From UHGV virus genome UHGV-0135379: DNA of 44,739 bases. One strand, given 5' to 3'. Both the position numbers and the translations under genes were made by a program. Each line of letters begins with the position of its first letter. The first letter of the stretch is position 1. Under the pieces are notes generated by a model. It made no database searches, was not told where the DNA came from, and saw only the letters and a list, made by a program, of their open reading frames with translations. Of the stretch, positions 7,909 to 44,739 are shown piece after piece. Source of the DNA: a virus.

Positions 7909-7999
7909 AGAATCCCCTTGCATATGCGTCTGACCATCAGAGCGCACCAGACGCGCCCTACGCGTCTAAATGGATTATATAAGGGGATTGGGCGGGATG

Positions 8000-8026
8000 T
8001 ACAGAAAAGCCCTCCGTAGAGGGCTT
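8000..8026 (-). terminator. Terminator-like hairpin closing the leftward small-ORF block before terS
   Basis: 8-bp stem AAGCCCTC/GAGGGCTT followed by TTTTCT on the minus strand. Confidence 0.5.
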
Positions 8027-8035
8027 GTGGGTTGG

Positions 8036-8191
8036 TTATTCTGTTATATCGCCGCCGTCTACCAGTGCGATTGGTATTCTCACTTCACCGTTGAATGTTT
8101 CGGCATACCAGAACTTTTCACACTGCGTTACGCTGAAAACATCGAGTTCTGACGTAGCCCCTGTTTTCCAGTAGATAGTTAACTTTTTCAT
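8036..8191 (-). CDS. Hypothetical protein (51 aa)
   Basis: ATG with AAAGAGGAGAG RBS, start overlaps upstream stop (ATGA); hairpin terminator follows. Confidence 0.45.
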   Translation of the reverse strand: MKKLTIYWKTGATSELDVFSVTQCEKFWYAETFNGEVRIPIALVDGGDITE

Positions 8192-8424
8192 TCTCCACTC
8201 TCCTCTTTAGCAATACGTTGCTCAGTCTTTGTGATACCGCGGCGCGTGAATAACACCGGGCTTGTCTTAACGTGCGTCATAAGGCGGTTATTATAAATTA
8301 CATGGCGCTCGCATTTCACGTCTTTGCTGTACTTCGCAATCGTCATTTCGTTGAGGCCTGTTTGTCGGCACGTCTCCGCCATCGTGCCAAATTCTTCAAT
8401 CAGGTTCGGAATGCTGGTAATCAT
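8188..8424 (-). CDS. Hypothetical protein (78 aa from ATG at 8424)
   Basis: Track ORF 8188-8448; internal ATG overlaps the stop of the upstream small ORF (ATGA). Confidence 0.5.
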   Translation of the reverse strand: MITSIPNLIEEFGTMAETCRQTGLNEMTIAKYSKDVKCERHVIYNNRLMTHVKTSPVLFTRRGITKTEQRIAKEESGE

Positions 8425-8591
8425 CCTAAGAAATTCCTCGTCGTCCACATCGCATTCGGATATTTGTTATCGCGGTCCTGTACTACGGCAATCATGTTAC
8501 CGCGTTGTACCAGGCAGAAGTGCCGCTGCTGCTCGCCGTTGTAGCGACGCCAGATTGCTTCTTCGATTGCCGCGTTGATGTCGCTGAACAT
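8421..8591 (-). CDS. Hypothetical protein (56 aa)
   Basis: ATG ORF translationally coupled to 8188-8424; weak RBS. Confidence 0.35.
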   Translation of the reverse strand: MFSDINAAIEEAIWRRYNGEQQRHFCLVQRGNMIAVVQDRDNKYPNAMWTTRNFLG

Positions 8592-8678
8592 TAGTATCTA
8601 CCCCACACAAAACCAACCAATACGCCGATAAAATAGCTTGCCACTACAAGACCAATAACCGCCTCAAGACTCATACCC

Positions 8679-8861
8679 TCACCCCACTATCTCATCACCG
8701 AGCCACGCCGTTTCTCGTATATCATCGACCACACAGGCAGCATGCTCACGGCTAATTGCAAAAATGTAGAAGCTGAACTTCTTCCCGTCGGCGTCGATGT
8801 GGTTAACCGAGTATGGTTTCCACAGGACGCCATCAATAACTACTGGCTTAGGCAACTCCAT
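8679..8861 (-). CDS. Hypothetical protein (start uncertain; track ORF extends to 8945)
   Basis: Open frame; several candidate ATGs (8861, 8912, 8927), none with a strong RBS. Confidence 0.3.
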   Translation of the reverse strand: MELPKPVVIDGVLWKPYSVNHIDADGKKFSFYIFAISREHAACVVDDIRETAWLGDEIVG

Positions 8862-43597: not shown

Positions 43598-43948
43598 TTA
43601 AGACACAGTTGCTACAGTGCTGCTGGAGATAATATTACCATACACATCGTGAACAACCACTTTATACGTACCGGAATCGGTAGTAGCGAGCGAAGTTTTC
43701 TCGTAGGTGGCGGCGGTAGCGCCTGGGATAGCGTTGTTATCTTTGTACCACTGGTATGTGTACGGGGCCAGACCGCCAGTTACGGCTACGGTAAGAGTCA
43801 TCGTCTGCCCCGTAGACTTGGTAGTGGTAGCGGCAAGTGCGGTAGAAAAAGATGCGGGCGAGATATTCGCCATATCGATTTCAACCTGACCATCGGCAGG
43901 AGAATCATCAGAAACACCAGTAATACGACGTTTGATTACATCAACCAT
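43598..43948 (-). CDS. Ig-like (Big-type) domain protein, candidate capsid decoration or surface protein
   Basis: Paralogous to the Ig-like part of 2825-3283; ATG with AAGGAG RBS. Confidence 0.6.
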   Translation of the reverse strand: MVDVIKRRITGVSDDSPADGQVEIDMANISPASFSTALAATTTKSTGQTMTLTVAVTGGLAPYTYQWYKDNNAIPGATAATYEKTSLATTDSGTYKVVVHDVYGNIISSSTVATVS

Positions 43949-43960
43949 TTTTAAGCTCCT

Positions 43961-44259
43961 TTAGCTTACAGTTCCTGCATTTTTAAGCGCAGTCAACAGA
44001 TTTGCTACGGTAGTGCGCAGCGCGGTTACATCAGTTCGAAGTTTGTTGTACTCGGCTACAAGGGCATCGAACTCGGTCTTAGTCGGGTCCGCAGCGGACT
44101 GCGACCCGGCGGCAGCGGTAATGGCCGCGGGGCGGCTACAGTAGCTGACTTTTTAACCCCACCAACTACGCTGGTAGTAGCCGGCGTTACTGGGATGTCA
44201 AAGTCGCCGAAGTCGACATTCTGAAGGCTGCGAGGCAAGCCTTTTCCGGTCTTAGCCAT
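43961..44259 (-). CDS. Small capsid-proximal protein needing a -1 shift at an A5 run (about 44150-44154) to join its two halves
   Basis: ATG at 44259 with AAGAGG RBS; frame 1 ends in Pro/Arg-rich junk at 44056, while the -1 frame continues as an amphipathic-helix peptide to a stop just before the next RBS. Confidence 0.4.
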
Positions 44260-44269
44260 AATTTACCTC

Positions 44270-44302
44270 TTAGTAAATGAAAAGAGGGACCGAAGTCCCT
44301 CT
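44270..44302 (-). terminator. Terminator or attenuator hairpin immediately after the major capsid gene
   Basis: 7-bp GC stem followed by TTTTCATTT on the minus strand. Confidence 0.5.
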
Positions 44303-44318
44303 CGATTATATCTTAACC

Positions 44319-44739
44319 TTAAGCCCCGACACCAGTTACCAGGAAGGCAATCGGTACATGCTTACGGTCAACCACACGGTTCCAGTTGGAAGCGTTCGCC
44401 AGGTCCTGCCAGGAAGCAGAGCGGGCGATAGTCTCGGTGCCGTTGCCGGTGATTACAGTGCTGGTGAAACTGTAACCAAACGGATGCAGCAACCAGGTCT
44501 TACGGGTCCACAGGGTTTCGACACCACCACCGTTACCGCGAGACGCTTCGCGCTCGTATTCCAGCGGGTTTGACGGAGAACCTTCGCCGTAACCGATAGC
44601 ACCGTTGCCGAAGATGATGGAGATGAACTTACGGCTGTTGTCAGTTCCGACTACGGTCATGCTGTCGTCAACAATCACACGATAGCCCTGGTAGGTGGCG
44701 AACATGGTGTTGTTGTCAGCGTCGCGAATGAAGTCGATA
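44319..44739 (-). CDS. Major capsid protein, C-terminal part (continues in frame from the window start)
   Basis: Frame open to the last base of the window; positions 2,1 plus 44739 form one codon (CTT) linking both parts into a 349-aa protein. Confidence 0.7.
   Translation of the reverse strand, partial: IDFIRDADNNTMFATYQGYRVIVDDSMTVVGTDNSRKFISIIFGNGAIGYGEGSPSNPLEYEREASRGNGGGVETLWTRKTWLLHPFGYSFTSTVITGNGTETIARSASWQDLANASNWNRVVDRKHVPIAFLVTGVGA

Follow-up and report, generated by a model that had tools for sequence, protein, structure and literature searches.

The head fibres of Bacillus phage phi29 are dispensable in the laboratory. The protein concerned, gp8.5 (PF11133; PDB 6qvk), is an accessory capsid fibre whose N-terminal part binds the capsid and whose helical part is a coiled coil, an arrangement resembling the one predicted for a family that stands much closer to the gene considered here, PHROG 4366 ("head fiber protein"), which includes K1G gp10 (YP_009168790) and the corresponding proteins of SETP3 and Bas75. 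We found neither virion proteomics nor a structure for the PHROG 4366 family, and the Guernseyvirinae, which include the K1G-like phages, have been described as structurally uncharacterised (PMC13243795).

Genes laid out in two frames have two kinds of well-described precedent. Programmed −1 frameshifts, such as those of the tail chaperone G/GT and of dnaX at A_AAA_AAG, have in common with the locus described below two overlapping frames, one protein and an A-rich run nearby, and true programmed frameshifts keep both this layout and the heptamer across relatives. The polyG tracts of Campylobacter phages are homopolymers in which frameshifts turn a virion surface protein on or off, and close relatives can be in either state; these and other known hypermutable tracts are far longer than 5 bases. 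One genome cannot tell a programmed frameshift from a mutation, and relatives settle the question fast. The original prediction for the small gene downstream of the capsid gene in a Kagunavirus genome, made from a single sequence, was that its two frames are joined by a ribosome slipping −1 at AAA-AAG or, alternatively, that one A is missing from the assembly. Here we compare this locus with its relatives.

Results

The head-fibre gene and its neighbours

The window, that is, the whole stretch of 44,739 nucleotides analysed, is a metagenome contig of a Kagunavirus (K1G-like, Guernseyvirinae; host group, E. coli phages), and all of the genes discussed lie on its minus strand. Over the 1240 bases around the gene, the best matches were the Escherichia phages vB_Eco_K-01 and phiEc3 (99.8% identity), Bas70 (97.7%) and K1G (96.2%), and over the whole window the identity to any GenBank phage was no better than about 94%. 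The ENA contig ERZ1031020 NODE_113 (44,794 bp; k-mer coverage, 14.8) equals the window over the 2180 nt compared, and in it the gene, on the reverse strand, has the same start, 44259.

The 3' end of the major capsid protein gene (44319-44739), annotated as major capsid or head protein in phiEc3, K1G and Bas70, is separated from the head-fibre gene by a strong terminator-like hairpin at 44282-44303 (GAGAGGGAC-TTCG-GTCCCTCTT), for which the scan gave a 9-bp stem and a 4-nt loop and which is followed by a T-rich tail. A terminator is annotated between the capsid and head-fibre genes in phages Snoke and Schulenburg, and the hairpin could reduce expression of the accessory genes relative to that of the capsid protein. 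Downstream lies an Ig-like (Hoc-like) head decoration gene at 43598-43948 (PHROG 4069, E=5e-58; Pfam Ig_3), which has its own RBS (AAGGAG at 43961-43956, ATG at 43948) and was intact in all loci examined. The order of capsid gene, head-fibre gene and Hoc-like gene is common to phiEc3, K-01, Bas70, K1G, SHAK7858 and 31 IMG/VR loci.

Some of the records compared have peculiarities of their own. In that of K-01 (L002, PQ435593, 625-798), two overlapping CDSs carry the annotation for the major head protein, and the locus exceeds that of the window by about 77 bases, which looks like an insertion, a duplication or an assembly problem in the capsid gene. In K1G, the 59-aa ORF and the adaptor gene are separated by a mobE-like homing endonuclease gene (7987-8736 of the K1G record; L004, 1714-1841) that is not present in the window or in phiEc3. 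The record OR594183 (vB_EcoM_SHAK7858, L043) has the taxonomy line Autographiviridae/Kayfunavirus and an "M" (myovirus) in its name, yet it is 94% identical to the Kagunavirus siphovirus of the window over 24.7 kb and is probably mislabelled. In the window itself, GC-rich intergenic hairpins (GGGGCC...loop...GGCCCC) contain small non-triplet indels with respect to relatives, at 2813 and 27359 in plus-strand coordinates; strains differ in the loop or stem length of these terminator-like hairpins.

Two halves of one protein in two frames

The gene starts at ATG 44259, 6 nt downstream of a Shine-Dalgarno sequence (GAGG, 44269-44266), which bears out the good RBS that had been noted for it. Frame 0 encodes 67 aa and ends at TAG 44058-44056. 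Its first 44 codons (44128-44259; MAKTGKGLPRSLQNVDFGDFDIPVTPATTSVVGGVKKSATVAAP) encode the conserved N-terminal arm of the head-fibre protein in the correct frame, identical to K1G residues 1-44; the remainder (44056-44127; RPLPLPPGRSPLRTRLRPSSMPL, then TAG) is a Pro/Arg-rich tail with no counterpart in any intact relative. The frame had been thought to decay after about 36 codons, but frame 0 matches the family as far as codon 44 (...KKSATVAAP).

The rest of the protein is stranded in the −1 frame relative to the ATG, which is the frame of the family. As predicted, this frame is open from 44152, is without a usable start codon and encodes an amphipathic-helix peptide, and its stop codon (TAA 43963-43961) overlaps the AAGGAG RBS of the next gene. 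The stranded part (43961-44128; residues 45-99, AAITAAAGSQSAADPTKTEFDALVAEYNKLRTDVTALRTTVANLLTALKNAGTVS, then the stop) is identical to K1G residues 45-99 and contains an Ala-rich linker and a predicted coiled-coil helix. Joined, the two parts amount to exactly 99 aa, the length of the protein in relatives and the length anticipated for the product.

In a tblastn comparison, a single family protein is matched by the two halves in different frames (−1 and −3), which is far beyond chance. Against PHROG 4366, the intact K1G form aligns over profile positions 1-91 of 91 (E=1.6e-42). The frame-0 ORF of the window covers only positions 1-36 with its residues 1-44 (E=1.3e-11), and the remainder matches in the −1 frame. 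Family members are single ORFs of about 94-101 aa; in the window, a frameshift at codon 45 limits the ORF to 67 aa. Apart from a one-base deletion, the window gene has the same sequence, position and RBS as the PHROG 4366 members, and its stop codon in the family frame overlaps the next RBS in the same way; unlike them, it has a frame broken after codon 44 and encodes only the 67-aa product. By these comparisons the gene is a disrupted allele of a PHROG 4366 head-fibre family gene. A role in capsid decoration had been proposed from the gene's position alone, and this part of the prediction gains from the annotation of the family as head fibre protein, from the location between the major capsid and Hoc-like genes and from the length of 99 aa; that the protein is an actual fibre on the virion is predicted from sequence.

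One base is missing from a C run

The locus was aligned with four relatives (phiEc3, K-01, K1G and Bas70), of which three, phiEc3, K-01 and K1G, are intact with a 300-nt ORF. The sole gap column of the alignment falls in a run of C at 44129-44132, which has four bases in the window (C4) and five in the intact K1G-type alleles (C5): intact genomes read GTA-GCC-GCC-CCC-GCG-GCC (V-A-A-P-A-A), and the window and Bas70 read GTA-GCC-GCC-CCG-CGG-CC. The frame is thus lost after Pro44 by a C5-to-C4 deletion, and the predicted C-terminal coiled-coil helix is removed. The A5 run at 44150-44154, the proposed slip site, lies 18 nt upstream of this gap, is unchanged in all four aligned relatives and is AAAAA in all intact relatives as in the window. 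The break had been assigned to the sequence around this run (44149-44157), where no length difference exists; the suggestion of a homopolymer indel was right in kind, but the base lost is a C, not an A.

A single-frame gene of 94-101 aa was found in 30 of the 31 IMG/VR loci, in 57 of the top 60 GenBank records and in about 75 of the 103 protein clusters from a large protein database; a 99-aa single-frame ORF is present in about 40 GenBank Kagunavirus records and in 30 of the 31 IMG/VR loci. Pro44 is invariant in an alignment of 39 sequences, every member of which is read in one frame, and the codons of the Ala-Pro-Ala site vary among relatives (GCA-CCT-GCG, GCG-CCC-GCG, ACG-CCC-GCA and others); the C run itself is missing from most family alleles. 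Looking at the gene in relatives had been suggested as a check on recoding; an ordinary single ORF in about 90 to 95% of the relatives sampled, with varied codons at the site, is an outcome that speaks against a programmed −1 slip.

Distribution of the C4 allele

By exact-protein look-up, the identical 67-aa product was found in at least 10 independent samples from ENA and Logan, on a total of about 17 contigs; two near-identical variants of it occur on three further contigs. Outside a shared block, the C4 contigs represent no fewer than six flanking backgrounds, with differences of up to 12%. The same C4 run is present in L048-L057, L058 and L059 and in the isolate Bas70, which was plaque-purified, is viable and was sequenced with Illumina 151-bp reads at 50-100x (PMC11990801). 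In L058 and L059 the change from C5 to C4 occurs on two other allele backgrounds, at a coverage of only 1.1 and 0.5, so that read errors are possible there. A metagenome scan for C4 and C5 gave two matches, both C5. The protein of L009 equals that of L047 (an ENA contig) and is absent from the exact look-up collection, as are the intact proteins of K1G and phiEc3; the collection is therefore incomplete, and the abundance of C4 relative to C5 was not inferred from absences.

The shared block is about 850 bp long (43598-44470 of the window, about −150 to +700 from ATG 44259) and nearly identical in the window, L049-L055, L045, Bas70 and K1G (L004). It extends over the capsid gene's 3' end and the genes for the head fibre and the Hoc-like protein. 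Outside the block the sequences diverge by about 10%, and the block looks like a sharp-edged recombination module. Within the block the C run is the only difference between K1G (C5) and L049-L052 (C4), and the window (C4) differs from L047 (C5; ENA assembly ERZ1031911) at 5 of 2180 positions. Two or more haplotypes of the block, slightly different from each other, carry C4, a pattern that recombination inside the block could also give, and the allele may have had a single origin and spread with the block, may have originated repeatedly, or both. Intact alleles are the large majority of the family: the commonest intact sequences occur on 25-26 contigs each, and one intact cluster comprises 139 distinct sequences and another 66.

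Other lesions in the same gene

The C run is not the only place at which the gene is damaged. Frameshifts were seen as CC to C at about nt 76 in the isolate KMB36, as GG to G at about nt 171 in L034, as A5 to A6 in L060 and L061, as A5 to A9 in L062 and late in the gene in P0072; the gene of Salmonella phage PSP2-22 is frame split, and P0069, P0079, P0089 and P0100 have in-frame internal deletions. The A9 run of L062 (601-786; Logan SRR22877668), whose product occurs on two contigs, is long enough for transcriptional slippage, and some of the transcripts could regain the frame. P0084, P0086 and P0101, which come from some Logan assemblies, are in-frame fusions that begin with about the first 32-55 head-fibre residues and continue into the C-terminal half of the Hoc-like protein; they look like the result of deletions between short repeats coding for Ala/Thr, with parts of both decoration genes lost.

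Among the IMG/VR loci and the GenBank tblastn matches, 4 of 91 copies of the head-fibre gene were frame split, against 0 of 91 for its Hoc-like neighbour; for the capsid gene, the 59-aa ORF and the adaptor gene the count was 0 of 31 each. The contrast with the Hoc-like gene is suggestive rather than decisive of a preferential breakage of the head-fibre gene. A comparison with Hoc-like homologues covered the best 120 of 507 matches, below which truncated forms would rank, and was uninformative about breakage.

What the truncated protein lacks

In an AlphaFold monomer model built on the family alignment, residues 1-60 are extended and of low confidence, and residues 61-94 form one helix (pLDDT 85-87) with hydrophobic residues in regular a/d heptads (F64, L67, Y71, L74, V78, L81, V85, L88 and L92). 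From this monomer model we infer that the helix would form a trimeric coiled-coil fibre. The frameshift at codon 45 retains the N-terminal arm and removes the Ala-rich linker and the amphipathic helix of about 34 residues. In the more distant loci L037-L042 (IMG/VR; gene from 1501), similarity is confined to the first 24 or so residues (MAKTGKGLPRSLQNVDFGDFDIPV), which are followed by unrelated C-terminal modules in ORFs of 84 or 120 aa. This suggests that the N-terminus is a conserved capsid anchor, presumably binding the capsid, and that the distal part of the fibre is exchangeable.

No solved homologue was found in the PDB by sequence or profile search, which returned only low-complexity and coiled-coil noise; the profile match to phi29 gp8.5 (6qvk) was not significant (E=0.42). 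The match to PF11133 is weak (E=0.012; 15.5 bits against a cut-off of 24.6) and confined to the C-terminal 24 residues, and precomputed PF11133 matches exist only for the internally deleted relatives P0069, P0079 and P0100. The K1G-type protein is also much shorter than gp8.5 (99 aa against 280 aa), and with a similarity below the Pfam cut-off, homology of the two is not established.

Discussion

The layout of the locus invites an explanation by recoding, of which two forms can be considered. In the originally proposed form, dnaX-like programmed −1 frameshifting would take place at GTT-AAA-AAG, where AAA-AAG corresponds to the 3' portion of the classical slippery motif A_AAA_AAG and where the −1 frame opens exactly; however, (i) the A5 run is the same in intact relatives and there lies in frame with both protein halves, (ii) the run reads G_GTT_AAA_AAG in the zero frame, giving the heptamer T_AAA_AAG, on which the P-site tRNA is unable to re-pair, (iii) no stimulatory structure was found at the locus, and (iv) the slip would encode VSYCSRP (VKK-VSYCSRP-AAIT; predicted junction peptide VKKVSYCSRPAAIT) instead of the conserved SATVAAP, a sequence that no relative encodes. 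Comparison with relatives rules this candidate out, and we give it next to no credence. In the other form, the slip would occur at the C run itself (GTAGCCGCCCCGCGGCCATT, GTAGCCGCCCCGCGGCCATTACC): with the rare Arg codon CGG pending in the A site, tRNA-Pro in the P site would move back one base from CCG to CCC, and the C4 allele would make an anchor-only 67-aa form together with some of the full wild-type 99-aa fibre, an outcome either tolerated or selected. A −1 slip at C_CCG gives the family sequence exactly (VAAP-AAIT; predicted junction VAAPAAITAAAGSQSAADPTK, in place of VAAPRPLPLPPGR in the product made without a slip), and CGG, a low-usage codon in E. coli, is rare in the genome of the window as well (4.1 per 1000 codons). 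The C4 allele is, moreover, as frequent as the commonest individual intact alleles (about 17 contigs versus 25-26), and the downstream frame is undamaged in every C4 copy; this last point weighs neither way on neutrality, since divergence within the block is very low and the copies, 0-2 substitutions apart, are too alike for purifying selection on the stranded part to be detected. Against such a slip, the junction (GCC_GCC_CCG_CGG) has no X_XXY_YYZ heptamer in the zero frame and no Shine-Dalgarno-like element at a useful distance, the 96 nt downstream of the site are no more stably folded than shuffled sequence (z = −0.6), and the sole good hairpin (GGGUCGCAG-UCCG-CUGCGGACCC) begins about 20 nt after the slip codon, not 5-9 nt. 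The two-frame layout is likewise unconserved, most relatives being without even the C run, and the other broken alleles have lesions at unrelated sites that no slip of this kind would rescue. We consider recoding at the C run improbable, although a low level of it could yield some full-length protein from the C4 allele. Because the relatives are single-framed, the codons at the site are varied, Pro44 is invariant, and both a heptamer and a well-placed structure are missing, the two-frame layout is not that of a programmed ribosomal frameshift, which would have kept its layout and heptamer across relatives.

The remaining alternatives concern the C run as a mutable tract, either in the sequencing or in the phage. 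If one C had been dropped from the contig, the phage would be truly C5, with an intact gene of 99 aa; homopolymers are the classic site of indel errors, the C4 call in the window rests on an assembly at a k-mer coverage of about 15 (NODE_113), and the near-identical sister contig L047 has C5. Several pipelines, on the other hand, independently gave the same allele, in about 17 contigs that come from at least 10 samples, and Bas70 has it at 50-100x on an Illumina platform, which seldom miscalls a 5-base run. The rest of the window is also clean: a tblastn search with every ORF of at least 60 aa from three whole-genome relatives revealed no other frame-split gene in 44.7 kb with 103 homopolymer runs of 5 or more, and its other non-triplet indels either compensate one another in pairs within divergent stretches or are located in intergenic hairpins. 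An assembly artefact is very unlikely, and because of the many independent assemblies, the several backgrounds, Bas70 and the otherwise clean window we conclude that the missing C is a real, circulating allele whose carrier phage is viable. A real allele could also be one state of a contingency (phase-variable) switch, in which the A5 and C5 tracts reversibly turn display of the head fibre on and off and populations keep both states. As in the Campylobacter phages, ON and OFF states occur in near-identical genomes (the window and L047; K1G and L049-L052 within the block), and frameshifts recur at both tracts on several backgrounds, including the expansion to A9. The tracts are, however, A5 and C5 or C4, below the usual 7 or more bases, with A9 in one relative; the C5 run is lacking in most alleles, no reversion was seen, and homopolymers are the expected sites of null mutations in any dispensable gene. 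Hypermutation and reversibility of these short runs would be hypothetical, and we regard such a switch as improbable. Taken broadly, the idea that the C4 allele is not simply dead, being kept either through the tRNA-Pro slip at C_CCG or through a population-level on/off switch at A5 and C5, likewise seems unlikely; if it were true, phages could adjust or lose a surface fibre that pays off under some conditions and is a burden under others.

We thus favor, with good confidence, a real one-base deletion (C5 to C4) in a dispensable capsid accessory gene of Kagunavirus, arising by replication slippage, giving a truncated 67-aa product and tolerated by the phage. In this explanation, the deletion at codons 43-44 most likely arises by slippage of replication on the C run, and translation from the normal ATG would then yield 44 conserved N-terminal residues followed by 23 out-of-frame, Pro/Arg-rich residues. 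Since phage growth would not require the full-length fibre, the deletion would be tolerated, and the C4 allele would persist and circulate with the recombination block of about 850 bp, by repeated origin, or both. The varied damage to the gene, at homopolymers and elsewhere, fits a dispensable decoration gene, and since isolates with broken copies are viable (Bas70 and KMB36), we infer that the full-length head fibre of K1G-like phages appears to be dispensable.

The gene family is already known and annotated, and the same truncated ORF is present in GenBank as Bas70_0012, a 67-aa virion structural protein. What is mildly new is that fibre-less alleles are common and recurrent in natural Kagunavirus populations. 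The 67-aa ORF should accordingly be labelled as a frameshifted head-fibre gene with its lesion at the C run, and not as a recoding site or a novel small protein. Fibre-less Bas70, set beside the near-isogenic, fibre-bearing Bas75, K1G and phiEc3, provides a ready pair with which to probe a widespread and uncharacterised capsid accessory protein.
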